Origin: Escherichia coli 042 | GTDB lineage: Bacteria > Pseudomonadota > Gammaproteobacteria > Enterobacterales > Enterobacteriaceae | DNA length: 64,000 nucleotides | Reading direction: 5' to 3' (one strand) | NCBI RefSeq assembly: GCF_000027125.1 | Contig: NC_017626.1 | The notes under the pieces: generated by a model | What the model saw: only the letters and a program-made list of their open reading frames with translations | Told to the model about the DNA's origin: nothing | Databases searched by the model: none | Made by a program: the position numbers and the translations under genes | Shown here: positions 3,018 to 59,666 of the stretch, one piece after another | How positions within the stretch are numbered: the stretch's first letter is position 1 | Layout: every line of letters begins with the position of its first letter

Positions 3018-3026
3018 GGCGATTCC

Positions 3027-4736
3027 TTATTTCAGCGGCGAGTTTTTACGCTCAATGCTGTAACGCTCGAGTTCTTTGTACGGCACCACTTTGCTCTTCT
3101 TCTTACGTACATCGACCACGGTCATGCGGTCGGTACAGGAGTAGCAAGGGTCCAGGCTACCGATAATCAGCGGCGCATCGGAAACAGTGTTGCCACGCAG
3201 CATGTAGCGCAGGGTCGGCCAGTTCGCGTAGGTCGCGGCACGGCAGCGCCAGCGGTACAGCTTCTGGTTGTCGCCGGTCATGCTCCAGTGGATATCGTCG
3301 CCGCGCGGCGCTTCGGCAAAGCCCAGCGCAAAACGGTGCGGAATATAGGTAAAGCCTTCCACCATCAGCGGACCGCCCGGCAGGTTATCCAGACCGTAGT
3401 CGATCATGTTCAGCGCGGTATAGACTTCGTTGATACGAACTTTCAGACGGGAAATAACGTCGCAGCCCTGCTCGCTGTGGACTTCCATTGGCAGCAGGCC
3501 ATAACCAACAAACGGGTGATCGGCACGGGTATCGCGGGCGTGACCGCTGGCGCGGACCATCGGGCCAACGTTACTGAAATCGCGGGCGATTTCCGGGTCC
3601 AGACGACCAATGCCGACAGTACGCTGTTCCATATTCGGTGTGCTCAGCAGCACATCCACCAGCTCCTGCACTTCACGACGCATCTGTTGCGCCAGCTGGC
3701 GGGTCTGGATCATGTCATCTTTCAGCAGATCGCGACGAATCCCGCCGATCAGGTTCAGGCCGTAGGTTTTACGCGCACCGGTGAGGATCTCTGCCATTTT
3801 CATGGAGGTTTCACGCACGCGGAAGAACTGCATAAAGCCGGAGTCGAAACCGGTAAAGTGACAGGCGAGGCCGAGGTTGAGCAGATGCGAGTGCAGGCGT
3901 TCTACCTCCAGCAGAATGGCGCGGATCATCTGCGCACGTTCTGGCACCTGAATACCCATCGCGTTTTCCACCGACGTGGTGTAGGCGGTGCTGTGAGCAA
4001 AGCCGCAGATCCCGCACACACGGTCAGAGAGGAAGGTCACTTCGTTGTAACCCATGCGGGTTTCCGCCAGTTTTTCCATGCCGCGATGGACATAGAACAG
4101 GCGGTAGTCGGCGTCGATAATGTTTTCGCCATCGACGAACAGACGGAAGTGGCCCGGTTCGTCAGAAGTGACGTGCAGCGGACCAATCGGCACGACGTTG
4201 TTTTTCTTGTCGCCCAGTTCGTTGATAAACTCGTAGGTTTCAGCATCGGTAGTCGGTGCCGGACGCTGACGATAATCCATGCTGTCTTTACGCAGCGGAT
4301 AAAGTTCATCCGGCCAGTCATCCGGCAGCACCAGACGACGTTCATCCGGAAGCCCTACCGGAATCAAACCGTACATATCGCGCACTTCACGCTCGCCCCA
4401 CACCGCCGCCGGAACGCGCGGCGTCACGGACGGATACTCCGGTTTGTTGGCGTCAACTTCAACGCGCACGGTTATCCAGCATTTGGTGCCCTTCTCCATC
4501 GACAGCACGTAGTAAACGGCGTAATGACCATTCAGTTTGCGTTCGTCGTTACCAAACAGCACCGACAGCCAGCCCCCCTGCTTGTAGTAGAGAAACTCCA
4601 CCACTTCCGGCAGGTAGTTCACCTTCACGGTCACGGTCAGCTGATCTTTGGTCTGCCAGGCGTGGTCCAGCACGACGCCCGGAAATGCCTCATTCAGCGC
4701 GGCGAGATAATGTTGACCTAATTTTTCTTCAGACAT
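3027..4736 (-). CDS. hycE: hydrogenase 3 [NiFe] large subunit
   Basis: Track ORF 3027..4757 starts at an upstream GTG; recognisable HycE begins MSEEKLGQHYL (569 aa); C-terminal DPCYSCTDR Ni-binding motif. Confidence 0.95.
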   Translation of the reverse strand: MSEEKLGQHYLAALNEAFPGVVLDHAWQTKDQLTVTVKVNYLPEVVEFLYYKQGGWLSVLFGNDERKLNGHYAVYYVLSMEKGTKCWITVRVEVDANKPEYPSVTPRVPAAVWGEREVRDMYGLIPVGLPDERRLVLPDDWPDELYPLRKDSMDYRQRPAPTTDAETYEFINELGDKKNNVVPIGPLHVTSDEPGHFRLFVDGENIIDADYRLFYVHRGMEKLAETRMGYNEVTFLSDRVCGICGFAHSTAYTTSVENAMGIQVPERAQMIRAILLEVERLHSHLLNLGLACHFTGFDSGFMQFFRVRETSMKMAEILTGARKTYGLNLIGGIRRDLLKDDMIQTRQLAQQMRREVQELVDVLLSTPNMEQRTVGIGRLDPEIARDFSNVGPMVRASGHARDTRADHPFVGYGLLPMEVHSEQGCDVISRLKVRINEVYTALNMIDYGLDNLPGGPLMVEGFTYIPHRFALGFAEAPRGDDIHWSMTGDNQKLYRWRCRAATYANWPTLRYMLRGNTVSDAPLIIGSLDPCYSCTDRMTVVDVRKKKSKVVPYKELERYSIERKNSPLK

Positions 4737-4753
4737 GCTCAAACTCTCTTTAA

Positions 4754-5677
4754 TCACGCCGCCAGCAAGGAGACGAACGCTAAAAATGCAAAGCCAAACC
4801 CAGCCCAGGTAATGCGCGGAGTAATATCAAGACGCAGACGGGCCATGCTGTTTTCGAACAGCGCGATAACCAGGACGCCAACCACCAGTTTGACGATGGC
4901 AATCACCAACGCCAGCAGCAGCCCACCGACGGTGAAGGTTTCCATTTGTCCCCACGGAATAAACACCCCGACGAACATCTGCAGCACCACCAACTGTTTC
5001 AGGCTGATACCCCATTTCATGACGCCAAAGCCGCTGCCGCTGTACTCAGAGAGCGGACCTTCCTGCAACTCCTGCTCGGCTTCCGCCAGGTCGAACGGCA
5101 GTTTGCCCATTTCGATAAAAGTGGCGAACGCACAGGCACAAAGCGCCAGCACCAGCGGGATGCTCTGGCTCAGCGGCCAGTGATAAACGGTGTCGGTGAT
5201 GTTGCTGATGTTGGTGGAACCGGCAACCTGTGCGGCAACCCACAGACCAAGCAGCAACATCGGTTCGACCAGCACGCCAAGCATCGCTTCACGGCTCGCG
5301 CCGATAGCGGTAAACGGGCTACCGGTATCCAGACCAGAAATAGCAAAGAAGAAACGCGCGATGGCAAAGAGATACAGTAAAGTGATCAAATCGCCCAGCT
5401 GCGGCAGCGGAGAACCAACGGTCACCACCGGCAGCGCAGTAGCGATAGTCAGCATGACGCCCACCATCACATACGGCGTCAGGCGGAACACCCAGCCGGA
5501 GGCATCCGGGCCAACGCTCTGGCGACCCAGCAGTTTGATAATGTCGCGATACTCCTGCAACACGCCCGGCCCGCGACGGTTATGCAAGCGGGCACGCGCC
5601 ACGCGGGTTATACCGGAGAGCAGCGGCGCAACGGCAAATAACACCAGCGCCTGAATTAACGGATATAAAACACTCAT
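4754..5677 (-). CDS. hycD: formate hydrogenlyase membrane subunit (NuoH-like)
   Basis: 307 aa polytopic membrane protein; operon position. Confidence 0.93.
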   Translation of the reverse strand: MSVLYPLIQALVLFAVAPLLSGITRVARARLHNRRGPGVLQEYRDIIKLLGRQSVGPDASGWVFRLTPYVMVGVMLTIATALPVVTVGSPLPQLGDLITLLYLFAIARFFFAISGLDTGSPFTAIGASREAMLGVLVEPMLLLGLWVAAQVAGSTNISNITDTVYHWPLSQSIPLVLALCACAFATFIEMGKLPFDLAEAEQELQEGPLSEYSGSGFGVMKWGISLKQLVVLQMFVGVFIPWGQMETFTVGGLLLALVIAIVKLVVGVLVIALFENSMARLRLDITPRITWAGFGFAFLAFVSLLAA

Positions 5678-11522: not shown

Positions 11523-12529
11523 ATAATATCCAACTCGCCCACGGTAGCGGCGGCCAGGCGATGCAGCAATTAATCAACAGCCTGTTTATGGAAGCCTTTG
11601 CCAACCCGTGGCTGGCAGAGCAGGAAGATCAGGCACGTCTTGATCTGGCGCAGCTGGTAGCGGAAGGCGACCGTCTGGCGTTCTCCACCGACAGTTACGT
11701 CATTGACCCGCTGTTCTTTCCTGGCGGTAATATCGGCAAGCTGGCGATTTGCGGCACCGCGAATGACGTTGCGGTCAGTGGCGCTATTCCGCGCTATCTC
11801 TCCTGTGGCTTTATCCTCGAAGAAGGATTGCCGATGGAGACACTGAAAGCCGTAGTGACCAGCATGGCAGAAACCGCCCGCGCGGCAGGCATTGCCATCG
11901 TCACTGGCGATACTAAAGTGGTGCAGCGCGGCGCGGCAGATAAACTGTTTATCAACACCGCTGGCATGGGCGCAATTCCGGCGAATATTCACTGGGGCGC
12001 ACAGACGCTAACCGCAGGCGATGTATTGCTGGTTAGCGGTACACTCGGGGACCACGGGGCGACTATCCTTAACCTGCGTGAGCAACTGGGGCTGGACGGC
12101 GAACTAGTCAGCGACTGCGCGGTACTAACGCCGCTTATTCAGACGCTGCGTGACATTCCCGGCGTGAAAGCGCTGCGTGATGCCACCCGTGGTGGTGTGA
12201 ACGCGGTAGTTCATGAGTTCGCGGCAGCCTGCGGTTGCGGTATTGAAATTTCAGAAGCGGCACTGCCGGTTAAACCTGCTGTGCGCGGCGTTTGCGAACT
12301 GCTGGGACTGGACGCCCTTAACTTTGCCAACGAAGGCAAACTGGTGATCGCCGTTGAACGCAACGCGGCAGAGCAAGTGCTGGCAGCGTTACATTCCCAT
12401 CCACTGGGAAAAGACGCGGCGCTGATTGGTGAAGTGGTGGAACGTAAAGGTGTTCGTCTTGCCGGTCTGTATGGCGTGAAACGAACCCTCGATCTACCGC
12501 ACGCCGAACCGCTTCCGCGTATATGCTAA
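11519..12529 (+). CDS. hypE: carbamoyl dehydratase (hydrogenase cyanide-ligand synthesis)
   Basis: 336 aa PurM-like fold protein ending PRIC; operon position. Confidence 0.93.
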   Translation: MNNIQLAHGSGGQAMQQLINSLFMEAFANPWLAEQEDQARLDLAQLVAEGDRLAFSTDSYVIDPLFFPGGNIGKLAICGTANDVAVSGAIPRYLSCGFILEEGLPMETLKAVVTSMAETARAAGIAIVTGDTKVVQRGAADKLFINTAGMGAIPANIHWGAQTLTAGDVLLVSGTLGDHGATILNLREQLGLDGELVSDCAVLTPLIQTLRDIPGVKALRDATRGGVNAVVHEFAAACGCGIEISEAALPVKPAVRGVCELLGLDALNFANEGKLVIAVERNAAEQVLAALHSHPLGKDAALIGEVVERKGVRLAGLYGVKRTLDLPHAEPLPRIC

Positions 12530-12602
12530 TAAAATTCTAAATCTCCTATAGTTAGTCAATGACCTTTTGCACCGCTTTGCGGTGCTTTCCTGGAAGAACA
12601 AA

Positions 12603-14681
12603 ATGTCATATACACCGATGAGTGATCTCGGACAACAAGGGTTGTTCGACATCACTCGGACACTATTGCAGCAGCCCGATCTGGCCTCGCTGTGTGAGGC
12701 TCTTTCGCAACTGGTAAAGCGTTCTGCGCTCGCCGACAACGCGGCTATTGTGTTGTGGCAAGCGCAGACTCAACGTGCGTCTTATTACGCATCGCGTGAA
12801 AAAGACACCCCCATTAAATATGAAGACGAAACTGTTCTGGCACACGGTCCGGTACGCAGCATTTTGTCGCGCCCTGATACGCTGCATTGCAGTTACGAAG
12901 AATTTTGTGAAACCTGGCCGCAGCTGGCCGCAGGTGGGCTATACCCCAAATTTGGTCACTATTGCCTGATGCCACTGGCGGCGGAAGGGCATATTTTTGG
13001 TGGCTGTGAATTTATTCGTTATGACGATCGCCCCTGGAGCGAAAAAGAGTTCAATCGTCTGCAAACATTTACGCAGATCGTTTCTGTCGTCACCGAACAA
13101 ATCCAGAGCCGCGTCGTCAATAATGTCGACTATGAGTTGTTATGCCGGGAGCGCGATAACTTCCGCATCCTGGTTGCCATTACCAACGCGGTGCTTTCCC
13201 GCCTGGATATGGACGAACTGGTCAGCGAAGTCGCCAAAGAAATCCATTACTACTTCGACATTGACGATATCAGCATCGTCTTACGCAGCCACCGTAAAAA
13301 CAAACTCAACATCTACTCCACTCACTATCTTGATAAACAACATCCCGCCCACGAACAGAGCGAAGTCGATGAAGCCGGAACCCTCACCGAACGCGTGTTC
13401 AAAAGTAAAGAGATGCTGCTGATTAATCTCCACGAGCGGGATGATTTAGCCCCCTACGAACGCATGTTGTTCGACACCTGGGGCAACCAGATTCAAACCT
13501 TGTGCCTGTTACCGCTGATGTCTGGCGACACCATGCTGGGCGTGCTGAAACTGGCGCAATGCGAAGAGAAAGTGTTTACCACTACTAATCTGAATTTACT
13601 GCGCCAGATTGCCGAACGTGTGGCAATCGCTGTCGATAACGCCCTCGCCTATCAGGAAATCCATCGTCTGAAAGAACGGCTGGTTGATGAAAACCTCGCC
13701 CTGACCGAGCAGCTCAACAATGTTGATAGTGAATTTGGCGAGATTATTGGCCGCAGCGAAGCCATGTACAGCGTGCTTAAACAAGTTGAAATGGTGGCGC
13801 AAAGTGACAGTACCGTGCTGATCCTCGGTGAAACTGGCACGGGTAAAGAGCTGATTGCCCGCGCGATCCATAATCTCAGTGGGCGTAATAATCGCCGCAT
13901 GGTCAAAATGAACTGCGCGGCGATGCCTGCCGGATTGCTGGAAAGCGATCTGTTTGGTCATGAGCGTGGGGCTTTTACCGGTGCCAGCGCCCAGCGCATT
14001 GGTCGTTTTGAACTGGCGGATAAAAGCTCTCTGTTCCTCGACGAAGTGGGCGATATGCCACTGGAGTTACAGCCGAAGTTGCTGCGTGTATTGCAGGAAC
14101 AGGAGTTTGAACGCCTCGGCAGCAACAAAATCATTCAGACGGACGTGCGTCTAATCGCCGCGACTAACCGCGATCTGAAAAAAATGGTCGCCGACCGAGA
14201 GTTCCGTAGCGATCTCTATTACCGCCTGAACGTATTCCCGATCCACCTGCCGCCACTACGCGAGCGTCCGGAAGATATTCCGCTGCTGGCGAAAGCCTTT
14301 ACCTTCAAAATTGCCCGTCGTCTGGGGCGCAATATCGACAGCATTCCTGCCGAGACGCTGCGCACCTTGAGCAACATGGAGTGGCCGGGTAACGTACGCG
14401 AACTGGAAAACGTCATTGAGCGCGCGGTATTGCTAACACGCGGCAACGTGCTGCAGCTGTCATTGCCAGATATTGCTTTACCGGAGCCTGAAACGCCGCC
14501 TGCCGCAACGGTTGTCGCTCAGGAGGGCGAAGATGAATATCAGTTGATTGTTCGCGTGCTGAAAGAAACTAACGGCGTGGTTGCCGGGCCTAAAGGCGCT
14601 GCGCAACGTCTGGGGCTGAAACGCACGACCCTGCTGTCACGGATGAAGCGACTGGGAATTGATAAATCGGCATTGATTTAA
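12603..14681 (+). CDS. fhlA: formate hydrogenlyase transcriptional activator (sigma-54 enhancer-binding protein)
   Basis: Starts MSYTPMSDLGQQ; GAF domains, AAA+ sigma-54 interaction motifs (GETGTGKE, GAFTGA), C-terminal HTH; 692 aa. Confidence 0.95.
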   Translation: MSYTPMSDLGQQGLFDITRTLLQQPDLASLCEALSQLVKRSALADNAAIVLWQAQTQRASYYASREKDTPIKYEDETVLAHGPVRSILSRPDTLHCSYEEFCETWPQLAAGGLYPKFGHYCLMPLAAEGHIFGGCEFIRYDDRPWSEKEFNRLQTFTQIVSVVTEQIQSRVVNNVDYELLCRERDNFRILVAITNAVLSRLDMDELVSEVAKEIHYYFDIDDISIVLRSHRKNKLNIYSTHYLDKQHPAHEQSEVDEAGTLTERVFKSKEMLLINLHERDDLAPYERMLFDTWGNQIQTLCLLPLMSGDTMLGVLKLAQCEEKVFTTTNLNLLRQIAERVAIAVDNALAYQEIHRLKERLVDENLALTEQLNNVDSEFGEIIGRSEAMYSVLKQVEMVAQSDSTVLILGETGTGKELIARAIHNLSGRNNRRMVKMNCAAMPAGLLESDLFGHERGAFTGASAQRIGRFELADKSSLFLDEVGDMPLELQPKLLRVLQEQEFERLGSNKIIQTDVRLIAATNRDLKKMVADREFRSDLYYRLNVFPIHLPPLRERPEDIPLLAKAFTFKIARRLGRNIDSIPAETLRTLSNMEWPGNVRELENVIERAVLLTRGNVLQLSLPDIALPEPETPPAATVVAQEGEDEYQLIVRVLKETNGVVAGPKGAAQRLGLKRTTLLSRMKRLGIDKSALI

Positions 14682-14725
14682 CAGATGTGGTTATACTCGA
14701 TCAACATTCAATGAAAGGAGGCAGT

Positions 14726-15154
14726 ATGGCAGTTTCAGCAAGAAATCAATTAACCGGAACAGTTAGCGCAGTAGCAATGGGCGCTGTGAATGATGAAGTA
14801 GAACTGACGCTGGCAGGTGGTGCAAAGCTGGTGGCAATTGTGACTCACAGCAGCCAGCAAGCGCTGGGTCTGGCGAAAGGGAAAGAAGCGATTGCCCTGA
14901 TTAAAGCCCCGTGGGTAACGCTGGCAACGGAAGACTGTGGACTGAAATTCTCTGCTCGCAACCAGTTTGCTGGCAGCGTGTCGACAATCACCGAAGGCGC
15001 AGTGAACGCCACTGTCCATATCAAAACGGATGCGGGTTTTGAAATTGTGGCAGTGGTAACAAATGAAAGTCAGGATGAAATGAAACTCACCACTGGCTCA
15101 CGCGTTATTGCATTGATCAAAGCATCAGCCATCCTGATTGCCACCAAAGCGTAA
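14726..15154 (+). CDS. tandem Mop/TOBE-domain protein (putative molybdate-binding molbindin)
   Basis: Two ~70 aa internal repeats (ARNQLTGTVS...LIKAPWVTLATE and ARNQFAGSVS...LIKASAILIATKA); aaaggagg RBS before ATG at 14726; alternative start at 14711. Confidence 0.7.
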   Translation: MAVSARNQLTGTVSAVAMGAVNDEVELTLAGGAKLVAIVTHSSQQALGLAKGKEAIALIKAPWVTLATEDCGLKFSARNQFAGSVSTITEGAVNATVHIKTDAGFEIVAVVTNESQDEMKLTTGSRVIALIKASAILIATKA

Positions 15155-15192
15155 GCGCCTTATTTGCCGGAGAGTATGGCTCTCCGGCAGAT

Positions 15193-15537
15193 TTATTTCT
15201 TTGGACGATATTTTTCTGGCAACTCCGGCACCGGACGCTTGTCATCGATGAGATGACGCACGGTTAAGATCGGATGACGCCACAGCATTCTCGGCCCGGC
15301 CCAACGCATAATCTGTTTCATCTCTTCACGCTTTGCAGGCTGGTAACAGTGCACCGGACACTGCTTACAGGCTGGTTTCTCTTCGCCGAACACACATTTA
15401 TCCAGCCGCTTTTGCGCGTAGGCAAACAGCGCGTCGTAATGCTCCGGCTCCGCTGACGCCTGCGGGCATTTCGCTTGATAAAGATCGATCATTTTTTTAA
15501 TCGTCAGTTTTTCACGAGAGATACGCTTGCCGGACAT
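15193..15537 (-). CDS. ygbA: conserved Cys-rich protein of the nitrosative-stress regulon
   Basis: 114 aa ORF with CxxC pairs; position between fhlA and mutS. Confidence 0.8.
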   Translation of the reverse strand: MSGKRISREKLTIKKMIDLYQAKCPQASAEPEHYDALFAYAQKRLDKCVFGEEKPACKQCPVHCYQPAKREEMKQIMRWAGPRMLWRHPILTVRHLIDDKRPVPELPEKYRPKK

Positions 15538-15554
15538 GCTGCCTCCATACTCTT

Positions 15555-15577
15555 AAGGTGTATTTATATTACAACTT
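15555..15577. promoter_or_regulatory. candidate NsrR operator upstream of ygbA
   Basis: aaggtgtatttatattacaactt: imperfect inverted repeat resembling the AAGATGyATTT-n-AAATrCATCTT NsrR consensus. Confidence 0.4.
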
Positions 15578-15823
15578 AATTTGAAAGGGGACTATGGCTC
15601 TGAAGGAGGAGGTTTATTCAACCGACGCAATTTTGCGTACTTGCTTCATAAGCATCACGCAAAAGCTGCAAAACAGCATCTTTCCCGGAATCACCATCAA
15701 GAACTCGCCGTTCGCTTCTTCCCCTGAAATGATTAACTCCGGTATCATGTGCGCCTTATGTGATTACAACGAAAATAAAAACCATCACACCCCATTTAAT
15801 ATCAGGGAACCGGACATAACCCC

Positions 15824-18385
15824 ATGAGTGCAATAGAAAATTTCGATGCCCATACGCCCATGATGCAGCAGTATCTCAAGCTGAAAGCCCAGCATCCCGA
15901 GATCCTGCTGTTTTACCGGATGGGTGATTTTTATGAACTGTTTTATGACGATGCAAAACGCGCGTCGCAGCTGCTGGATATTTCACTGACCAAACGCGGT
16001 GCTTCCGCGGGAGAGCCGATCCCGATGGCGGGGATCCCCTACCATGCGGTGGAAAACTACCTCGCCAAACTGGTGAATCAGGGCGAGTCCGTTGCCATCT
16101 GCGAACAAATTGGCGATCCGGCGACCAGCAAAGGTCCAGTTGAGCGCAAAGTTGTGCGTATCGTTACGCCAGGCACCATCAGCGATGAAGCCCTGTTACA
16201 AGAGCGCCAGGACAATCTGCTGGCGGCTATCTGGCAGGACAGTAAAGGTTTCGGCTACGCGACGCTGGATATCAGTTCCGGTCGTTTTCGCCTGAGCGAA
16301 CCGGCTGACCGGGAAACGATGGCGGCAGAACTGCAACGCACTAATCCGGCGGAACTGCTATATGCAGAAGATTTTGCTGAGATGTCGCTGATTGAAGGTC
16401 GTCGCGGTCTGCGCCGTCGTCCGCTGTGGGAGTTTGAAATCGACACCGCGCGCCAGCAGTTGAATCTGCAATTTGGCACCCGCGATCTGGTCGGTTTTGG
16501 CGTCGAGAACGCGCCGCGCGGACTTTGTGCTGCCGGTTGTCTGTTGCAGTATGCGAAAGATACCCAACGTACGACTCTGCCGCATATTCGTTCTATCACT
16601 ATGGAACGTGAGCAGGACAGCATCATTATGGATGCCGCGACGCGTCGTAACCTGGAAATTACCCAGAACCTGGCGGGCGGTGCGGAAAACACGCTGGCTT
16701 CAGTGCTCGACTGCACTGTAACGCCGATGGGTAGTCGTATGCTGAAACGCTGGCTGCATATGCCAGTGCGCGATACCCGCGTGTTGCTTGAGCGCCAGCA
16801 AACTATTGGCGCATTGCAGGATTTCACCGCCGAGCTACAGCCGGTGCTGCGTCAGGTCGGCGACCTGGAACGTATTCTGGCGCGTCTGGCTTTACGAACT
16901 GCTCGCCCACGCGATCTGGCCCGTATGCGTCACGCTTTCCAGCAACTGCCGGAGCTGCGTGCGCAGTTAGAAAATGTCGATAGCGCTCCGGTACAGGCGC
17001 TACGTGAAAAAATGGGCGAGTTTGCCGAGCTGCGCGATCTGCTGGAGCGGGCAATCATCGACACACCGCCAGTGCTGGTACGCGACGGTGGTGTTATCGC
17101 ATCGGGCTATAACGAAGAGCTGGATGAGTGGCGCGCGCTGGCTGACGGCGCGACCGATTATCTGGAGCGTCTGGAAGTCCGCGAGCGTGAACGTACTGGC
17201 CTGGACACGCTGAAAGTCGGCTTTAACGCGGTTCATGGTTATTACATTCAGATCAGCCGTGGACAAAGCCATCTGGCACCCATCAACTACATGCGTCGCC
17301 AGACGCTGAAAAACGCCGAGCGCTACATCATTCCAGAGCTAAAAGAGTACGAAGATAAAGTTCTCACCTCAAAAGGCAAAGCACTGGCACTGGAAAAACA
17401 ACTTTATGAAGAGCTGTTCGACCTGCTGTTGCCGCATCTGGAAGCGTTGCAACAGAGCGCGAGCGCGCTGGCGGAACTTGATGTGCTGGTTAACCTGGCG
17501 GAACGGGCCTATACCCTGAACTACACCTGCCCGACCTTCATTGATAAACCGGGTATTCGCATCACCGAAGGTCGCCATCCGGTGGTTGAACAGGTACTGA
17601 ACGAGCCATTTATCGCCAACCCGCTGAACCTGTCGCCGCAGCGTCGCATGTTGATCATTACCGGTCCGAATATGGGCGGTAAAAGTACCTATATGCGCCA
17701 GACCGCACTGATTGCGCTGATGGCCTACATCGGCAGCTATGTACCGGCACAAAAAGTCGAGATTGGACCTATCGACCGTATCTTCACCCGCGTAGGGGCA
17801 GCGGATGATCTGGCATCCGGGCGTTCAACCTTTATGGTGGAGATGACCGAAACCGCCAATATTCTGCATAACGCCACCGAGTACAGTCTGGTGCTGATGG
17901 ATGAGATTGGGCGCGGGACGTCCACTTACGATGGTCTGTCGCTGGCGTGGGCGTGCGCGGAAAATCTGGCGAATAAGATTAAAGCGTTGACGTTGTTTGC
18001 CACCCACTATTTCGAGCTGACCCAGTTACCGGAGAAAATGGAAGGCGTCGCCAACGTGCATCTCGATGCACTGGAGCACGGCGACACCATTGCCTTTATG
18101 CACAGCGTGCAGGATGGCGCGGCGAGCAAAAGCTACGGCCTGGCGGTTGCAGCTCTGGCGGGCGTGCCAAAAGAGGTTATTAAGCGCGCACGGCAAAAAC
18201 TGCGTGAGCTGGAAAGCATTTCGCCGAACGCCGCCGCGACACAGGTCGATGGCACGCAGATGTCGCTGCTTTCAGTGCCGGAAGAAACCTCGCCCGCGGT
18301 GGAAGCGCTGGAAAATCTCGACCCGGATTCACTCACTCCGCGCCAGGCGCTGGAGTGGATTTATCGGTTGAAGAGTCTGGTATAA
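15824..18385 (+). CDS. mutS: DNA mismatch repair protein
   Basis: 853 aa; Walker [10 protein letters not shown]; N-terminal [18 protein letters not shown]. Confidence 0.97.
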
Positions 18386-18391
18386 TATTAA

Positions 18392-18418
18392 TGAGCCCCG
18401 ATTAAACTTCGGGGCTCA
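18392..18418 (+). terminator. hairpin after mutS
   Basis: tgagccccg-attaaactt-cggggctca perfect 9-bp stem directly after the mutS stop. Confidence 0.5.
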
Positions 18419-18489
18419 TATATCTCTTATCCGATAGATAAAAAAGGAGTAAAATAAACACTATTAAGAACAAAACATTCAAGAAAAAA

Positions 18490-19353
18490 ATGAGAATAAC
18501 GATTGCATCAATAATTTTAATAATTAGCGCCACTGCAATAGGCGCCGAAGATACCCCTTCACATTTTGATATTCCCGAGCAAGTATTAAATAATATTACG
18601 AAGGAATCACGAAATAAACTGCAGGATATCATTGCCAAGGCTCAACATGGCGATAAAGCCTCACAAACGGTGATGGGACTCATATACCTGAATGGTCTAT
18701 CTGAAAGTCCTTCAGTGAAGGATATAAACAAAGCATTTTATTGGCTCAACCTTGCAGCAAAGCAAAATTATGATGAAGCTGAATTTTACTTAGGACAGAT
18801 TTATCATTACGGATATGATAATACGGGGCCTAACTATCGTATTGCGATATACTGGTATGAGAAAGCGGCAGAAAAAGGGAATGAACAAGCTCAAATAAAC
18901 TGTGCGAATATTTATCAATTTGGCCCACAGGAATTCCAAAACATTAACAAAGCCAAGTATTGGCTTCAGAAAGCAGTACAGAAGGACAATCCTATTGCAC
19001 ATGCAAACTTAGGGATTATCGGAATTCAAGAGAATAAGTATGCTGAAGCTATCCCTCACTTAAAAATAGCGGCAGAAAAGGGTCAGCGACTCGGCCAATA
19101 TAATTACGGGACACTTTTTTTTAATGGTCAGGGCGTTCCCAAAGATATACGACAGGCTAAATACTGGTTTGAGAAAGCTGCTACTCAAAACTTACCTATT
19201 GCACAAATTACTTTAGGACAAATTTATGCCTGGGGGCTTGATGGAAATGGCATAAATAAAGAAGAAGCGTTGCTCTGGTTAAATAAAGCCAAAGCCCAAG
19301 GTCAATTTACTGATAAACAGATCAACGCCATTATTTCAAAAAAAATAGACTAA
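18490..19353 (+). CDS. secreted Sel1-repeat (TPR-like) protein
   Basis: 287 aa; N-terminal signal peptide; about 7 Sel1-like repeats (recurring xAxxWxxKAAxQG); AT-rich coding sequence. Confidence 0.75.
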   Translation: MRITIASIILIISATAIGAEDTPSHFDIPEQVLNNITKESRNKLQDIIAKAQHGDKASQTVMGLIYLNGLSESPSVKDINKAFYWLNLAAKQNYDEAEFYLGQIYHYGYDNTGPNYRIAIYWYEKAAEKGNEQAQINCANIYQFGPQEFQNINKAKYWLQKAVQKDNPIAHANLGIIGIQENKYAEAIPHLKIAAEKGQRLGQYNYGTLFFNGQGVPKDIRQAKYWFEKAATQNLPIAQITLGQIYAWGLDGNGINKEEALLWLNKAKAQGQFTDKQINAIISKKID

Positions 19354-19377
19354 CTCCAAACCAAAATGCTCAAATCA

Positions 19378-20034
19378 ATGCCATCTATTCGCTATCACAA
19401 AATAGAATCATTTAATTATCGCCATATATGGGCCGTTGGTGATATTCATGGCGATTATCAATTATTACAATCCCGCTTACACCAACTCTCTTTTTGCCCC
19501 GAAACTGACTTACTTATTTCCGTAGGCGATAATATTGATCGTGGGCCGGATAGTCTTAACGTGCTACGCCTGTTAAACCAGCCCTGGTTTACATCGGTTA
19601 AAGGCAACCACGAGGCAATGGCGCTTGATGCCTTCGCGACTGGCGATGGCAATATGTGGCTTGCCAGTGGCGGTGACTGGTTCTTTGAGTTAAATGATTC
19701 AGAACAAAAAGAAGCAATAGACCTGTTGCTTCGCTTTCATCATCTTCCGCATATTATAGAAATCACCAACGATATTATAAAATATGTTATCGTACATGCA
19801 GATTATCCGGGTGATGAATATCAGTTTGGCAAGGAAGTAGCGGAAAGAGAGGTACTCTGGCCTGTTGATCGCGTGCAGAAATCACTCAAAGGCGAGTTAA
19901 AAGAAATAAACGGTGCCGACTGTTTTATCTTCGGGCATATGATGTTTACAAATATCCAGACATTTGCCAATCAGGTTTATATTGATACCGGCTCGCCGGA
20001 AAGCGGGCGGTTATCGTTTTATAAAATAAAATGA
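19378..20034 (+). CDS. pphB: serine/threonine protein phosphatase 2 (PPP family)
   Basis: GDIHG, GDNIDRG and GNHE metallophosphatase motifs; about 218 aa from MPSIRY. Confidence 0.88.
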   Translation: MPSIRYHKIESFNYRHIWAVGDIHGDYQLLQSRLHQLSFCPETDLLISVGDNIDRGPDSLNVLRLLNQPWFTSVKGNHEAMALDAFATGDGNMWLASGGDWFFELNDSEQKEAIDLLLRFHHLPHIIEITNDIIKYVIVHADYPGDEYQFGKEVAEREVLWPVDRVQKSLKGELKEINGADCFIFGHMMFTNIQTFANQVYIDTGSPESGRLSFYKIK

Positions 20035-20039
20035 CAAGA

Positions 20040-20075
20040 CCGGGTAAGGCAAAGCCTCTACCCGGCACTTTTTTA
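20040..20075. terminator. bidirectional hairpin between convergent pphB and ecdD
   Basis: ccgggta-aggcaaagcctc-tacccgg stem-loop followed by a T-run. Confidence 0.55.
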
Positions 20076-20312
20076 TTAACGCTTATCTGCCACCAGCAGT
20101 GGCGGAATGCTCGGCACCATTGGCGCGTCATCAATATCTTTCTGCGTCATGCGGAACGCTTCGGGATAATGTTCGCGGCTGGTGCGGCGCAGCGGTTCGG
20201 TATCGCGCCAGGTATAGAGGCAATGCTGGCACTGGTAGACCGTCCAGACATCTTTTACCGGCGATTTCGCCATCACTTCAATCTGTTCATCAGCACAACG
20301 TGGACAAATCAT
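20076..20312 (-). CDS. ecdD: phenolic acid decarboxylase small subunit (BsdD/VdcD-like)
   Basis: 78 aa Cys-containing ORF immediately downstream of the UbiD-like gene. Confidence 0.75.
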   Translation of the reverse strand: MICPRCADEQIEVMAKSPVKDVWTVYQCQHCLYTWRDTEPLRRTSREHYPEAFRMTQKDIDDAPMVPSIPPLLVADKR

Positions 20313-20322
20313 CTTGTTCTCC

Positions 20323-21750
20323 TTATTGACGTGCGGCCAGCATAGCGGTCAGTTTTTCAGCCCAGGCTTTGGTTTCCGGTAAATCCACCACCGGCTGGCT
20401 GTAGTGACCACGGTTGTCCGGGGCGACAGGCGTGGTAGCGTCGATAATCAGCTTGTCGGTGATACCTGCCGGGCTTGAGCCGGGGTCGAGTTCCAGCACG
20501 GACATATTCGGCAACTGCACCAAATCCCCTGCAGGGTTCACTTTCGAAGAGAGCGCCCACATCACCTGCGGCAGGTTGAACGGATCAACGTCTTCATCGA
20601 CCATAATCACCATCTTCACGTAGCCCAGACCGTGTGGCGTGGTCATCGCACGCAGGCCCACCGCGCGGGCAAAGCCACCGTAGCGTTTTTTGGTGGAGAT
20701 AATCGCCAGCAGGCCGTGGGTGTACATAGCGTTCACCGCCTGCACTTCCGGGAACTCGGCTTTCAGTTGCTGATACAGCGGCACGCAGGTGGCAGGCCCC
20801 ATCAGGTAGTCGATTTCGGTCCACGGCATACCAAGATAGAGCGATTCGAAAATCGGTTTGGTACGGTAAGAGACTTTATCGATACGCACCACGGTCATGT
20901 TACGCCCGCCGGAGTAGTGGCCGGTAAACTCACCGAACGGCCCTTCGATTTCGCGTTTACGGCTTTCGATGACCCCTTCGAGGATCACTTCTGAACCCCA
21001 CGGCACATCAAAACCGGTCAATGGCGCGGTGGCGATCGGGTACGGGCTTTCACGCAGCGCGCCCGCCATTTCATACTCAGACTGATCGTATTTCAGCGGC
21101 GTGGCCCCCATCAGGGTGATGATCGGATCGTTACCGAGCGTGATGGCAATCGGCAGATCTTCACCGCGTTCTTCCGCTTTATGCAGATGCAGAGCGATAT
21201 CGTGCATCGGCACCGGTTGCAGGCCGAGCTTACGTTTGCCCTTCACTTCCATGCGGTAGATGCCGACGTTCTGCTTGCCGAAGTTATCCGGGTCGAGCGG
21301 ATCGCGGGAAACCACGCACGCTTTATCGAGATAGAAACCGCCATCACCGTCGTTTAAACGAAACAGCGGCAGAATATCGAACAGGTTGATCTCGTCGCCA
21401 TCGACGGTGTTCTGCGCCCAGGCTGGATTGGCGCGGCGCTCCGGGGCAATGGGGAAGTTATCCCAGCGGCGGATAAACTCATCAATCTGTTTTTTAACCG
21501 GGGTGTTTGGCGGCAGGCCGAGGGAAATCGCGTGGTTCTGCCAGGAACCGATGGTATTCATCGCCACGCGGGCATCGATAAAGCCGCGAATATTGTCAAA
21601 CCACAGCGCCGGTGCACCATCGCCGATACGTCCGGTGGCGTTGGCAGCGGCTGCCAGATCCGGTTCCGCGTTCACCTCTTCACTGATTTTCAGTAACTGG
21701 CCGTGGTCATCAAGCGCCTGTAAAAAGCTGCGTAAATCATCAAATGCCAT
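20323..21750 (-). CDS. ecdC: UbiD-family (prFMN-dependent) aromatic acid decarboxylase
   Basis: 475 aa with UbiD-family similarity. Confidence 0.85.
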   Translation of the reverse strand: MAFDDLRSFLQALDDHGQLLKISEEVNAEPDLAAAANATGRIGDGAPALWFDNIRGFIDARVAMNTIGSWQNHAISLGLPPNTPVKKQIDEFIRRWDNFPIAPERRANPAWAQNTVDGDEINLFDILPLFRLNDGDGGFYLDKACVVSRDPLDPDNFGKQNVGIYRMEVKGKRKLGLQPVPMHDIALHLHKAEERGEDLPIAITLGNDPIITLMGATPLKYDQSEYEMAGALRESPYPIATAPLTGFDVPWGSEVILEGVIESRKREIEGPFGEFTGHYSGGRNMTVVRIDKVSYRTKPIFESLYLGMPWTEIDYLMGPATCVPLYQQLKAEFPEVQAVNAMYTHGLLAIISTKKRYGGFARAVGLRAMTTPHGLGYVKMVIMVDEDVDPFNLPQVMWALSSKVNPAGDLVQLPNMSVLELDPGSSPAGITDKLIIDATTPVAPDNRGHYSQPVVDLPETKAWAEKLTAMLAARQ

Positions 21751-22343
21751 TATTCATTCTCCTGAGAAAAATTCCGGGCCTGCGGCAATCCTTGCCAGCG
21801 CCTGGCGTGAGGATGTTCGAGGCCAAATTGATCCAGCACGCGGGCTACCACATGGTGGACAATGTCATCTACCGTTTCGGGATGGTTATAAAAGGCAGGC
21901 ATCGGCGGCACCATCGCCACACCCATGCGCGAAAGTGCGAGCATATTTTCGAGATGGATTGTGCTAAGCGGCATTTCACGCGGCACCAGCACCAGTTTGC
22001 GGCCTTCTTTGAGCACGACGTCCGCCGCGCGCCCTACGAGACCATCGGCGTAACCAGCGCGGATACCGGCGAGCGTTTTCATACTGCATGGAATAACGAT
22101 CATGCCGTCGGTACGAAAGGAGCCGGAAGAGATAGTCGCAGCCTGATCCGCCGGGTTATGGCTGAAGTCTGCGAGGGCGGCAACATCGCGAGCGCTGTAA
22201 GGCGTTTCCAGTTCAATGGTGGTTTTCGCCCACTTCGACATCACCAGATGAGTCTCGACATTCGGCATCTCCCGCAGCGCTTGCAGTAATGCCACCCCAA
22301 GAGGCGCACCGGTAGCCCCTGTCATCCCGACGATCAGTCTCAT
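21750..22343 (-). CDS. ecdB: UbiX/Pad1-family flavin prenyltransferase
   Basis: 197 aa; N-terminal MRLIVGMTGATGAPLGV flavoprotein motif. Confidence 0.88.
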   Translation of the reverse strand: MRLIVGMTGATGAPLGVALLQALREMPNVETHLVMSKWAKTTIELETPYSARDVAALADFSHNPADQAATISSGSFRTDGMIVIPCSMKTLAGIRAGYADGLVGRAADVVLKEGRKLVLVPREMPLSTIHLENMLALSRMGVAMVPPMPAFYNHPETVDDIVHHVVARVLDQFGLEHPHARRWQGLPQARNFSQENE

Positions 22344-22360
22344 TGTTTATTCTCTTAATT

Positions 22361-22374
22361 GTTCGTATACGAAC
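22361..22374. promoter_or_regulatory. perfect palindrome in the divergent ecdB/hosA promoter region (candidate MarR-type operator)
   Basis: GTTCGTATACGAAC, 14 bp, self-complementary, about 18 bp upstream of ecdB start. Confidence 0.45.
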
Positions 22375-22489
22375 GTTATTATTAAAATACGCCTCTGTTT
22401 TCATCGCGGCAAGCACTGAAAAGTAACAACATCTTCTTCGTCACTGAAAAACCGCTATGATAGCGGCAGATAGTTTGCCCGGAGTTTAC

Positions 22490-22897
22490 ATGGCGTTACG
22501 AAATAAAGCGTTCCATCAGTTACGACAGCTTTTTCAGCAGCACACGGCTCGCTGGCAGCACGAGTTACCTGACCTCACCAAACCACAGTACGCGGTGATG
22601 CGCGCCATTGCTGATAAGCCTGGTATCGAACAGGTGGCACTGATAGAAGCAGCAGTCAGCACCAAAGCAACGCTGGCAGAAATGTTGACAAGAATGGAAA
22701 ATCGTGGCTTAGTCAGACGTGAACATGACGCCGCTGACAAGCGGCGACGCTTTGTCTGGCTGACTGCCGAAGGAGAAAAGGTACTTGCTGCGGCGATACC
22801 GATTGGTGACAGTGTGGATGCGGAATTTTTGGGGCGTTTGAGTGGAGAAGAGCAGGAGCTGTTTATGCAGCTGGTGCGCAAGATGATGAGCAAATAG
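22490..22897 (+). CDS. hosA: MarR/SlyA-family transcriptional regulator
   Basis: 135 aa from MALRNK; winged-HTH MarR pattern; divergent from ecdB. Confidence 0.85.
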   Translation: MALRNKAFHQLRQLFQQHTARWQHELPDLTKPQYAVMRAIADKPGIEQVALIEAAVSTKATLAEMLTRMENRGLVRREHDAADKRRRFVWLTAEGEKVLAAAIPIGDSVDAEFLGRLSGEEQELFMQLVRKMMSK

Positions 22898-23017: not shown

Positions 23018-24010
23018 TTACTCGCGGAACAGCGCTTCGATATTCAGCCCCTGCGTTTGCAGGATTTCGCGCAAACGGCGCAGGCCTTCAACCTGAATCT
23101 GGCGAACACGTTCACGGGTGAGGCCAATTTCACGACCTACATCTTCCAGTGTTGCCGCTTCGTACCCCAGCAAACCGAATCGACGTGCCAGCACTTCACG
23201 CTGTTTGGCGTTCAGCTCGAACAGCCATTTGACGATGCTCTGCTTCATATCGTCATCTTGCGTGGTATCTTCCGGACCGTTCTCTTTTTCATCGGCCAGG
23301 ATGTCCAGCAACGCTTTTTCGGAATCACCACCCAGCGGGGTGTCTACCGAGGTAATGCGCTCGTTAAGACGAAGCATACGGCTGACGTCATCAACTGGCT
23401 TATCCAGTTGCTCTGCGCTCTCTTCCGCACTTGGTTCGTGGTCCAGTTTATGGGACAACTCGCGTGCGGTTCGCAGGTAAACGTTCAGCTCCTTTACGAT
23501 GTGAATCGGCAAACGAATAGTACGGGTTTGGTTCATAATCGCCCGTTCGATCGTCTGGCGGATCCACCAGGTTGCGTATGTTGAGAAGCGGAAACCACGT
23601 TCCGGGTCAAACTTCTCTACCGCGCGGATCAGCCCCAGGTTGCCCTCTTCGATCAGGTCCAACAGCGCCAGACCACGATTGCCATAACGGCGGGCAATCT
23701 TCACGACCAGACGCAGGTTACTTTCAATCATCCGGCGACGTGAAGCGACATCTCCACGCAGTGCGCGACGCGCGAAATAAACTTCTTCTTCGGCCGTTAA
23801 CAGTGGCGAATAACCAATCTCACCAAGGTAAAGCTGAGTCGCGTCCAACACACGCTGTGTGGCCCCTTGCGATAACAGCTCCTCTTCAGCCAAATCGTTA
23901 TCACTGGGTTCCTCTTCAACTAAGGCTTTCTCGTCAAAAACCTCAACTCCGTTCTCATCAAATTCCGCGTCTTCATTTAAATCATGAACTTTCAGCGTAT
24001 TCTGACTCAT
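23018..24010 (-). CDS. rpoS: RNA polymerase sigma factor sigma-S (sigma-38)
   Basis: 330 aa full-length sigma-70 family protein; codon 33 reads Glu. Confidence 0.97.
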
Positions 24011-34097: not shown

Positions 34098-34553
34098 GGG
34101 AGTTCTACCGCAGGGGCGGGGAACTCCAAGTGATGTCCATCATCGCATCCAGTGCGTCCGGTTTATCCCCGCTGACGCGGGGAACACACATGAATGTCGG
34201 TTCAGACCGTGTTTTTACCCGGTTTATCCCCGCTGGCGCGGGGAACACTCGTCGGCGTCTTCACCCGTCGCATAACGCTGCGGTTTATCCCCGCTGGCGC
34301 GGGGAACACTGCCAGCGTGTCGGCGTGCGTTTCGCGCTGCCCGGTTTATCCCCGCTGACGCGGGGAACACTCGATCGATAGCTGCGCGATACCTGCGGGG
34401 ATCGGTTTATCCCCGCTGACGCGGGGAACACGGCAGCTATCGAGGCAGTTATCGAGCGTCGCGCGGTTTATCCCCGCTGACGCGGGGAACACCAAAGGAC
34501 ACCGGGAGGCACCCGGCACCGCAGCGGTTTATCCCCGCTGACGCGGGGAACAC
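34098..34553 (-). CRISPR. type I-E CRISPR array: 8 repeats (the iap-proximal one degenerate), 7 spacers of 32 nt
   Basis: 29-nt repeat cggtttatccccgctg(a/g)cgcggggaacac at 34159, 34220, 34281, 34342, 34403, 34464, 34525; degenerate copy at 34098..34126; 61-nt period. Confidence 0.95.
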
Positions 34554-34649: not shown

Positions 34650-35859
<1,210 letters not shown>

Positions 35860-35863
<4 letters not shown>

Positions 35864-36510
35864 GCCTCTGCTCCGGGTTTGATCAGCATCAGACCACAGC
35901 CGAACGCGCGGCTTTTGCCATACCCCTGGCTCAGACGTTGCAGAAATAACCCAGGATCGGTGACCGTAAGCATCCCCGTATAATCCACGCTACAGAACTG
36001 GATCAGTTGCCGGGAGTTTTCCCGCCGCAGTTGCTGTTGTCGGTAGGCATCGACCGAGGTATCCAGTAGTGTAAAACCGCTTCTTTCCCCCTGCGCTGCC
36101 AGCCAGTCCAGCGCCGCCTGTTGTTGATGCAACCAGACATCACGCCCTTCCGCCTGCCCCCTCACCTGCCGTTTCGCCTCTATCAGCAGATCGTGGCGCT
36201 TACCCGCTTTACAGACTGTTGGATTCGCCCGCAGGTTGAAACAAAGGGATTGTCCGGTACGCAGCTCCGGCGCAAATGACCGGCATTCGATGGTGAACGT
36301 ATCACTTTCCGCCGGGCGTTCCTGCGACAGGACAAAAAAGCGAAACGCGCCCTGGAGTTCTTCCCGACGATAAAGAAATTGCCTTTCTTTGCCACCCGGG
36401 AAAAGATCCCACAGCCACTGATGCATCACATATTCACCGCGATCCACCAGATGCAGCAACTGCGCAGGCGAAAGCTGGCCGGTATGTAAGGTTATTCTTG
36501 AGAGGTACAT
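35860..36510 (-). CDS. casE: CRISPR pre-crRNA endoribonuclease Cas6e (CasE)
   Basis: Likely start MYLSRITLHTGQ (track ORF 35860..36648 is an upstream extension); C-terminal G-rich loop GYGKSRAFGCGLM. Confidence 0.88.
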
Positions 36511-37238
36511 GGTTCCTCCTTGCTGAGCCACGGCCCCTGATTGACGGTGCGTTCCCCAAACAGCCACTGCTGGCGATTTAAAGGAACATCCCGGCGGCGC
36601 AATATTTTGCTCGCGACCAGGCCGTCGTGCTCCCCTTCCCACCAGCATTCATCCTGAAGTTTCGGGAGTGAGACTTTCAGTTCGTGGAAACGATCCTGAT
36701 ACTGTTGGTATGCGTTACGTAAGACATCAGACGCGTTGCCTTCGAGCAGTAACGGCGCAAGTGGTAACGCCAGCGGATGACTTTTTCGCCCCAGATAAAG
36801 CGGAAAAACCGGATGACGTAAATCTTCCTGCAACTGTTCGAGGCTGTAAGGCGCATCGGGGGTTGTTGCCACCGCCACCATCCACCAGGCGTCGGTGTAA
36901 TAGTCGCGCCGGGAGATAATCGCGCTTAGCAGTTCAAGATTACTCAACTCTTCGCGACGGCTGAAATAACGCGCTTTACGCACCTCTTTTGGCATCTGGA
37001 CCGTGTGATAATCCCGTGCCCAGCGCGGGTTACGGCTGGCGCAAACCACCAGTGAATAGTGGCGATTAAACGCGTTTAAGCGTTCGGTATCATCACGCCG
37101 AATCCCTACCCCGGCAGCCAGCAGCCCCAGCAATGCTGAGCGCGAAGGCAGTTCATGGGTATGACGCACTTCACCGGGGGCATCGACGCCCCAGGATGCC
37201 ATCGGCCCATGAAGCTGAAAAATTAGATATTGGCTCAT
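36492..37238 (-). CDS. casD: Cascade subunit Cas5e (CasD)
   Basis: 248 aa; N-terminal MSQYLIFQLHGPMASWG typical of Cas5. Confidence 0.88.
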   Translation of the reverse strand: MSQYLIFQLHGPMASWGVDAPGEVRHTHELPSRSALLGLLAAGVGIRRDDTERLNAFNRHYSLVVCASRNPRWARDYHTVQMPKEVRKARYFSRREELSNLELLSAIISRRDYYTDAWWMVAVATTPDAPYSLEQLQEDLRHPVFPLYLGRKSHPLALPLAPLLLEGNASDVLRNAYQQYQDRFHELKVSLPKLQDECWWEGEHDGLVASKILRRRDVPLNRQQWLFGERTVNQGPWLSKEEPCTSQE

Positions 37239-37248
37239 AAGCCGCCCC

Positions 37249-38304: not shown

Positions 38305-38318
38305 GAGATAGTCCTTTA

Positions 38319-40420: not shown

Positions 40421-40511
40421 CCTCTCGTAAAAAAGACCATCCCAGGTCGGTTGTCCATCATTCCATCCTTTTGGGTGTATCAACTATTCAGAGAGCCCTG
40501 TCGCAGGCATC

Positions 40512-43407: not shown

Positions 43408-43560
43408 TACTTCTTCGATTCGTAAGCGAGAACTGCCTTAAACTCCATACCACGTTCTCTGATACTCAACTCACACAACGAGTCGCCTACCATCAGCGTG
43501 AATCCCAGTACTGTACAACACAGTACGATGATTGCCACAAGGGCATATTTTGTCAGCATG
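43408..43560 (-). CDS. hok: Hok/Gef-family type I toxin (small membrane peptide)
   Basis: 50 aa [50 protein letters not shown]; matches Hok/Gef pattern (TM helix, SLCE, AYES); GGAGG 7 nt upstream of ATG; below the 60-aa track cutoff. Confidence 0.8.
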
Positions 43561-59620: not shown

Positions 59621-59666
59621 GTGAGGAAGACCGGGCGGGAAACTGCCCGGCCTGAACATACCTGAA

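Follow-up and report, generated by a model that had tools for sequence, protein, structure and literature searches.

A Pseudocitrobacter-like mutS–sel1–pphB haplotype with a gene for a predicted periplasmic Sel1-like repeat protein in the mutS–rpoS interval of Escherichia coli 042

The Divergent Haplotype and Its Boundaries

In a 64,000-nucleotide stretch of the Escherichia coli 042 chromosome (contig NC_017626.1; the whole stretch is referred to below as the window), the interval between mutS and rpoS (18386–22897) most probably represents the O157:H7-type short form of this region supplemented with an extra gene for a periplasmic Sel1-like repeat (SLR) protein on a recombined, Pseudocitrobacter-like haplotype. 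The right-hand 2.9 kb of the interval, ecdBCD–hosA, is an already described, widespread O157:H7-type insert. New here is the gene of the SLR protein (below, sel1) with the mutS tail and the pphB allele linked to it, which is rare, annotated, and uncharacterised; the rest of the block is known. Hence, the view of the first-pass annotation of this DNA that the whole block is peculiar to the strain holds for the Sel1 gene and the linked pphB allele, both rare, and fails for ecdBCD–hosA, which is widespread (PMC4209514).

The segment from 18236 to approximately 20040 (1.8 kb), comprising the mutS tail, the mutS–sel1 spacer, sel1, and pphB, is a separate haplotype, with ~15% divergence from other E. 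coli and 91–96% identity to Pseudocitrobacter. Its left edge lies inside mutS (15824–18385, plus strand; placed by the open reading frame (ORF) list and by RefSeq, through the annotated genes of an E. coli genome with 100% identity). Up to 18235, mutS is E. coli-like, with 0–1 differences per 50 nt to the O157-type sequence and 5–8 to Pseudocitrobacter. In the last 150 nt of the gene (18236–18385), the relation is reversed: 24 differences to the O157-type and 6–8 to two Pseudocitrobacter genomes (84.0% vs. 96.0 and 94.7% identity), all of the changes being synonymous. The sequence of the mutS–sel1 spacer is likewise unlike that of the O157-type spacer. The right edge falls at ~20025–20050, around the pphB stop codon and the pphB–ecdD hairpin, where the window, distinct through sel1 and pphB (85–87% nt identity of pphB to other E. 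coli), rejoins the latter: mismatches to the O157-type and to strain AST85 number 3–7 per 25 nt over 19700–20049 and 0–4 from 20050 on. The hairpin itself (20040..20075, unstranded; CCGGGTA...TACCCGG followed by a T-run) occupies the pphB–ecdD spacer and marks the right end of the divergent haplotype.

Along the locus, the identity of the window to Pseudocitrobacter amounts to 85% in the mutS body, 95–96% in the mutS tail, 93% in sel1, 91% in pphB, 95% in ecdD, 94.5% in ecdC, 80% in ecdB, and 70% in the marR gene. The synonymous divergence (dS) between the two is 0.2–0.35 within the shared tract and 0.8–1.2 outside it. In the 3′ part of pphB (19825–19974), there are no differences to Pseudocitrobacter corydidari and at most two to a Pseudocitrobacter metagenome-assembled genome (MAG), the remainder of sel1–pphB differing by 7–9%; a later exchange of a second, short tract may have produced this segment, or the local rate may differ.

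No integrase, tRNA gene, or flanking direct or inverted repeats were found around the tract in the ORF list, the RefSeq annotation, or a repeat search. True plasmid copies of sel1 were not found either, as the two 100% "plasmid" matches are 4.9-Mb records which look like mislabelled chromosomes. Insertion of a mobile element or island was rejected on these grounds: flanking repeats, integrase, tRNA, and true plasmid copies are all missing. A crossover inside mutS combined with the lack of mobile-element signatures establishes homologous recombination between genera, into or out of the lineage, as the mechanism in place of island insertion. Mosaicism of the mutS flank has been described in E. 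coli (cited in PMC4209514) with the same traits: a junction in the 3′ end of mutS, a flank divergent by ~15%, and no mobile-element signatures. The present case differs in that the tract has identifiable closest relatives (Pseudocitrobacter) and holds an extra gene.

As to the direction, E. coli most likely received the tract from a donor resembling Pseudocitrobacter. Import is favoured by the presence of the tract in two Pseudocitrobacter species ~5% apart and by the rarity and near invariance of the E. coli allele. The opposite course is unlikely, yet deserves consideration: mutS tail–sel1–pphB would be native to Escherichia, would have been given together with ecdD–ecdC to an ancestor of Pseudocitrobacter, and would then have been lost or replaced in most E. 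coli. A single outward transfer spanning 18236–~21600 would cover both the likeness of sel1–pphB, limited to the window type, and the 94–96% identity to Pseudocitrobacter that every E. coli type shows in ecdD–ecdC; that such an event also fits counts against import. The sharp fall of identity beyond this span, to 80% in ecdB and 70% in marR, agrees with it, and the second, Citrobacter-like sel1 allele present in 12 E. coli genomes suggests that sel1 may be old in E. coli. Nevertheless, the window allele is rare (181 of 5426 genomes) and at least 99% identical across E. coli, the two Pseudocitrobacter species carry the tract with an internal divergence matching their own, and most E. coli, AST85 included, have a mutS 3′ tail of the other type.

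Comparison with Known Forms of the Interval

According to Ewers et al. 2014 (PMC4209514), the mutS–rpoS region is a mosaic shaped by horizontal exchange, and four patterns of it are distinguished. Pattern I, the O157:H7/EHEC-1 (enterohaemorrhagic E. coli 1) type with a 2.9-kb insert of yclBCD/kpdBCD plus slyA/hosA (PMC4209514), shares with the window the gene order, the orientation, and the absence of ygbI–ygbN. The window differs from it by the extra 0.97-kb Sel1 gene and by another mutS 3′ tail, spacer, and pphB allele (84–85% identity). The K-12-type order is mutS–pphB–ygbI–ltnD–otnK–otnC–ygbM–ygbN–rpoS, which bears out the statement of the first-pass annotation that K-12 carries a different set, ygbI–ygbN, here. 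The alignment to K-12- and O157-type genomes that it had proposed returned this set in K-12 and, in the O157-type, the same block minus the Sel1 gene (mutS–pphB–ecdD–ecdC–ecdB–MarR–rpoS).

The published mutS–yclC primers anneal as expected. The predicted product is 1318 bp in the O157-type locus, the exact value given by Ewers et al. for EDL933 (PMC4209514), and 2206 bp in the window. The switch at 18236 lies just past the end (18234) of the published primer F3.

Distribution and Gene Order of sel1

The sel1 gene was detected in 193 of the 5426 complete E. coli genomes, in 181 of them at no less than 99% identity and in 12 at 60–80%. The protein encoded by the latter allele, e.g., in strain AST85, has ~54% amino acid identity to that of the window. 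The full block is present in 192 of the 5426 genomes, and the haplotype in ~3%; one carrier of the ≥99% allele is labelled O15:H18 ST69. The whole segment 18300–23100 is 100% identical to that of E. coli strain 300033. In a search of 5.8 billion proteins, close relatives of the Sel1 protein came from E. coli, P. corydidari (92%), and Citrobacter (50–56%), followed by generic Sel1 proteins at no more than 36%. Among the GTDB species representatives, the family is confined to two, the Pseudocitrobacter MAG and C. werkmanii.

The gene order was read in P. corydidari, the Pseudocitrobacter MAG, Citrobacter spp., C. enshiensis, and two further assemblies (C. werkmanii, locus L013, lies outside this set and was covered by an alignment of its mutS). 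In every locus read, sel1 immediately follows the 3′ end of mutS and precedes ecdDCB–marR. The content of the sel1–ecdD interval varies: E. coli as well as Pseudocitrobacter have pphB there, Citrobacter has an unrelated ORF on the minus strand with a signal peptide of its own, and in locus L010 the interval is empty, sel1 abutting ecdD. The constant site 3′ of mutS, together with the variable content of the sel1–ecdD interval, makes sel1 a positional orthologue not tied to pphB.

Several peculiarities of these loci were recorded alongside. The Citrobacter ORF in place of pphB (L007, 8982–9608, minus strand; also in L005, L006, L008, and L011) was called with a length of 153–208 aa and has no Pfam match; an internal methionine in it is followed by a signal-peptide-like segment, MSFYRRVVLLFLLGISSGAQSA. 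In P. corydidari (L004), a phage-type integrase and an HNH gene precede mutS (2739–5169), and genes for ROK-family, amidohydrolase, glucosamine-isomerase, and SSF-transporter proteins follow the MarR gene in place of rpoS (12453–16864). With no rpoS after the MarR gene there, the block is not a "mutS–rpoS" one in Pseudocitrobacter. In AST85 (L003, 7229–7687), an IS200/IS605 tnpA gene is located between the MarR gene and rpoS; a similar IS200-family insertion was reported from an ST405 strain (Ewers et al., PMC4209514).

Base Composition

The GC content is 0.38 in sel1 (0.33 at third codon positions, GC3), 0.30 in the mutS–sel1 spacer, and 0.42 in pphB (GC3 0.41), against 0.52–0.57 (GC3 0.52–0.68) in the neighbouring genes. 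Over the 64 kb, 864-bp windows average 0.520 with a standard deviation of 0.048, and a GC content below 0.40 recurs in one other stretch only (~59.2–60.1 kb). The low GC3 of sel1 and pphB indicates an AT bias in codon choice, beyond amino acid content alone. Thus, the AT-richness noticed in the first reading was confirmed, strongly for sel1 and moderately for pphB; an interval identical to that of K-12 and of ordinary composition, which would have spoken against that reading, was looked for, and the interval is neither. At the same time, pphB of K-12-type and O157-type genomes is as AT-rich as here (GC 0.42). Since pphB is AT-rich in E. coli devoid of sel1 as well, the composition specific to the haplotype is that of the Sel1 gene only. 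A 78-aa antisense ORF at 18402–18638, unannotated in RefSeq, was considered to have arisen by chance in AT-rich sequence.

The Sel1-Like Repeat Protein

The sel1 gene (18490–19353, plus strand) encodes a 287-aa protein listed in RefSeq as "tetratricopeptide repeat protein" (WP_001223107.1). It displays four significant Pfam PF08238 repeats (independent E values of 7e-11 to 8e-5) and a fifth, weak one (0.15); the only internal repeats of the DNA are Sel1 units of 108 and 204 nt. The AlphaFold model has a mean predicted local distance difference test score of 87.2 and 14 paired helices, and its top Foldseek matches in the PDB are all solved SLR proteins (EsiB/c5321, LceB, LpnE, Oxalobacter SLRs, and HcpC). 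As modelled, the protein is a member of the SLR family with the right-handed alpha/alpha superhelix characteristic of it. The identity to its structural and profile neighbours is 19–31%.

The closest resemblance is to EsiB/c5321 of the extraintestinal pathogenic E. coli CFT073 (PDB 4bwr). It shares the SLR superhelix and is both the top profile match (E = 1.8e-68, multi-repeat) and the top Foldseek match (E = 1.7e-10, TM-score 0.69 on the query). The two proteins differ in identity (28%), in size (287 aa with ~6–7 repeats vs. a 467-residue solved chain), and in chromosomal locus. Orthology to EsiB, a secretory immunoglobulin A-binding SLR protein (PMC3735183, PMC3851747), was ruled out by the length, the locus, the 28% identity, and the repeat-to-repeat character of the matches (four stretches). 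The Legionella LceB and LpnE, Helicobacter HcpC, and Oxalobacter SLRs are alike in fold and repeat type (Foldseek E 1e-8 to 1e-10, TM-score 0.63–0.71). Unlike the Hcp proteins, the Sel1 protein has a single conserved cysteine (C138) and lacks paired disulfides; unlike the Legionella SLRs, it has no Dot/Icm context, its identity to these SLRs being 19–31%.

Most bacterial SLR proteins are periplasmic or secreted. By rule-based analysis, the N-terminus of the Sel1 protein comprises a putative signal-peptide region of residues ~1–18 with a candidate cleavage site AIG|AED, a Kyte–Doolittle mean of 2.68 over residues 3–14, a basic residue at position 2, and no lipobox. All orthologues exhibit one or two basic residues, a hydrophobic core of 12–15 residues, small residues at −3/−1, and no lipobox, the best 12-residue Kyte–Doolittle mean among the Sel1 proteins being 2.3–2.7. 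On these features, the protein is predicted to reach the periplasm by the Sec pathway rather than to be delivered into host cells.

The ratio of nonsynonymous to synonymous divergence (dN/dS) is 0.16–0.20 for sel1 and 0.01–0.05 for the neighbouring genes, indicating that the gene is maintained, though under looser constraint than its neighbours. Beyond the generic repeat, the motifs QAQxNCAxIYQFGP, PIAHANLG, AAEKG, and QYNY are invariant among the orthologues, which suggests a conserved binding surface.

A number of family assignments were considered and rejected. MerG (NF033786) is the best NCBIfam match (E = 1.5e-19, residues 6–170), at 70.8 bits vs. a cut-off of 350. ExoR matched with E = 1.3e-8 and 34 bits vs. 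a cut-off of 450, and MotX and AlgK scored far under their curated cut-offs. A role in anti-phage defence was dismissed, because PADLOC returned only a 22-bit partial match of the PtuA ATPase profile for the Sel1 protein and none for PphB. Immunity proteins of the type VI secretion system (T6SS; PA5086–88) gave only weak fold matches (E ~2e-4, 13–15% identity), and the T6SS neighbourhood is inconsistent: among the sel1 loci, T6SS genes are found near C. enshiensis sel1 only, upstream of mutS.

PphB and Its Relation to sel1

The pphB (prpB) gene occupies 19378–20034 on the plus strand according to the ORF list and RefSeq. Its product scores 454 bits vs. a cut-off of 332 against NCBIfam NF007425 over residues 1–218 of 218, contains the motifs GDIHG, GDNIDRG, and GNHE, and matches the lambda phosphatase (PDB 1g5b) with 9.5e-60. 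A hydrophobic N-terminus or signal peptide is missing (best 12-residue Kyte–Doolittle mean 0.35). Judging by these signatures, PphB is an ordinary cytoplasmic, lambda-phosphatase-like Ser/Thr enzyme of the PPP family. It resembles PphB/PrpB of K-12 in the full-length NCBIfam equivalog match, the intact metallophosphatase motifs, and the position beside mutS. The difference is that the allele of the window is divergent (85% nt and 87% aa identity to the K-12/O157 alleles, 91% nt to Pseudocitrobacter) and follows sel1 by 24 nt instead of its own 105-nt upstream spacer. Two starts are conceivable, ATG 19366 of the longest ORF (222 aa) and ATG 19378 of RefSeq (218 aa), with no clear Shine–Dalgarno sequence at either.

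The gap between sel1 and pphB is 24 nt here and 22 nt in AST85 and Pseudocitrobacter, and no terminator-like site was found between 19353 and 19378. In this haplotype, sel1 and pphB probably share a transcript, although sel1 would not depend on pphB for its function.

The first-pass annotation had regarded the Sel1 protein and the phosphatase as a possible secreted-effector-like pair, i.e., a horizontally acquired couple acting on host cells. Such a notion is prompted by the AT-richness, adjacency, and 24-nt spacing of the genes, by the best structural matches EsiB, LpnE, and LceB, which are host-interacting SLR proteins (PMC3735183, PMC10868440), and by the eukaryote- and phage-like fold of PPP phosphatases. 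Even so, a signal peptide is missing from PphB, and the literature places the action of the paralogue PphA/PrpA in cytoplasmic Cpx signalling (PMC6610125). The genes also occur independently: pphB stands alone beside mutS in K-12-type and O157-type genomes, and sel1 is found without pphB in Citrobacter and in L010. This independent occurrence largely refutes the idea of an effector pair; with no secretion-system or mobile-element gene beside the two in the window and nothing meaningful from PADLOC, it has become highly improbable. PphB is said to act likewise on Cpx signalling (reportedly the work of Missiakas and Raina, 1997).

It is also improbable, if somewhat less so, that the two proteins form a trans-envelope stress module, in which the SLR protein would serve as a periplasmic adaptor and influence a sensor kinase, in the way that ExoR acts on ExoS, and PphB would tune the pathway of that kinase from the cytoplasm. 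The probable co-transcription with gaps of 22–24 nt in both E. coli and Pseudocitrobacter, the co-variation of the sel1-linked pphB allele with sel1, the reported modulation of CpxAR and htrA signalling by the paralogue PphA/PrpA (PMC6610125), and a weak NCBIfam match to ExoR (E = 1.3e-8) are in line with it. On the other side, sel1 and pphB are separable in nature, ExoR scores 34 bits vs. 450, and the supposed link is one of genomic context.

The Decarboxylase Module and HosA

Downstream, ecdD (20076–20312), ecdC (20323–21750), and ecdB (21750–22343), all on the minus strand, form the contiguous group ecdB–ecdC–ecdD (vdcBCD/kpdBCD/yclBCD; 20076..22343), whose junctions overlap or span 10 nt. 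The MarR regulator gene hosA (22490–22897, plus strand) is divergent from ecdB, and rpoS (23018–24010, minus strand) closes the interval. These positions follow from the ORF list and RefSeq, where all the genes named in the first-pass annotation between mutS and rpoS were recovered. Its family assignments stood as well: Pfam recognized the Sel1 repeats, NCBIfam placed PphB, VdcB (313 bits, cut-off 290), VdcC (789, cut-off 650), and VdcD (121, cut-off 30) above their cut-offs, and HosA and EcdB have PDB matches.

EcdB matches O157 Pad1 of E. coli (PDB 1sbz) with 3.6e-129 and is practically that protein, and EcdC matches a solved phenolic acid decarboxylase (PDB 7ae4) with 3e-160. By homology, EcdB is a UbiX-type flavin prenyltransferase, EcdC a UbiD-type decarboxylase, and EcdD the small subunit of a three-subunit operon. 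HosA matches PDB 8aga, "Transcriptional regulator HosA", over residues 1–134 (E = 5e-82) and is practically the crystallised protein; this regulator is described as repressing the decarboxylase operon in a manner responsive to 4-hydroxybenzoate (bioRxiv 10.1101/2024.04.24.590444). We infer that EcdBCD and HosA constitute the known 4-hydroxybenzoate-inducible phenolic-acid decarboxylase module dependent on prenylated flavin mononucleotide. The ecdDCB–hosA segment is 96% identical at the nucleotide level to the O157-type region.

One may ask if the Sel1 protein is a periplasmic factor aiding this module and restricting how far phenolic or aromatic compounds enter or cause damage, much as MerG does with phenylmercury. 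All the loci read have sel1 beside or close to ecdDCB–marR (in L010, it abuts ecdD), and MerG is its best NCBIfam match (E = 1.5e-19). Still, the MerG score is 70.8 bits vs. 350, a repeat-level likeness; thousands of E. coli genomes possess ecdBCD–hosA without sel1; and sel1 and ecd are convergent, not operonic, their proximity being inseparable from synteny among closely related genera. Such a role is therefore doubtful. Overall, there is little chance that the Sel1 protein is a functional partner of its neighbours, be it in an envelope-stress arm with PphB or in phenolic protection with EcdBCD–HosA.

Proposed Scenario

Under the preferred explanation, a recombined Pseudocitrobacter-like haplotype with a gene for a periplasmic SLR protein, a donor resembling Pseudocitrobacter would have passed mutS tail–sel1–pphB into E. 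coli via homologous recombination. The Sel1 protein would be exported by the Sec pathway and its signal peptide removed; the mature protein may then serve as a soluble periplasmic alpha-solenoid scaffold binding an envelope partner.

Apart from the ecdD–ecdC identities discussed above, several points weigh against this explanation. The likeness of the Sel1 protein to EsiB, LpnE, and HcpC is of the repeat level only (19–31% identity), and the envelope partner is a proposal. Its periplasmic location follows from rule-based signal-peptide features, and the evidence for the co-transcription of sel1 with pphB consists of the spacing and the absence of a terminator. A simple promoter scan yielded no convincing promoter for sel1 (5 sites vs. 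5.3 expected in shuffled sequence). Finally, no mention of a Sel1 gene in the mutS–rpoS region was found in the open-access literature, the body of work searched; older papers may contain one.

Other Features of the Window

A terminator-like hairpin after mutS (18391..18419, plus strand; 11-bp stem with 7 G–C pairs) was recognized as an inverted repeat inside the mutS–sel1 spacer. The Rfam scan of the interval (18386–22897) gave no match. Point variants of rpoS are common in E. coli, and RpoS of the window carries one at codon 198, Ile198 to Ser relative to the common allele WP_000081550.1. This allele is shared by strain 300033, which is otherwise identical, and by genomes of the K-12 and O157 types.

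Farther along the window, an array of clustered regularly interspaced short palindromic repeats (CRISPR) spans 34159–34551, with seven type I-E repeats at a 61-nt spacing. Beside it, a run of minus-strand ORFs (34940–43169) lies at the position of the cas cluster, an assignment by position only. A match to the sok antitoxin RNA (Rfam RF01794, 109.6 bits) at 43544–43701 on the minus strand probably belongs to a hok/sok-type locus of the chromosome. The second AT-rich stretch of the window (59600–60750, GC down to 0.32) corresponds to the ygcE–queE spacer. It contains three repeats (60258–60406) and a degenerate one at 59727, and Tandem Repeats Finder reported no array there. In other strains, the CRISPR-2 array is located in this spacer.

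Implications

Lineages of E. coli are typed with the aid of the mutS–rpoS interval, a classic hot spot of recombination. The haplotype described here represents a fifth arrangement beside the four usually scored and is predicted to give an unexpected 2.2-kb mutS–yclC PCR product. The Sel1 protein is lineage-restricted and predicted to be periplasmic, and it may serve as a lineage marker; nothing found points to a new mechanism. If the protein did prove to be a partner of its neighbours, the locus would be an unrecognised accessory module moving between enterobacterial genera by mutS-anchored recombination. The crossover between genera is resolved within mutS to the base and is consistent with repeated exchange of mismatch-repair genes and their flanks.

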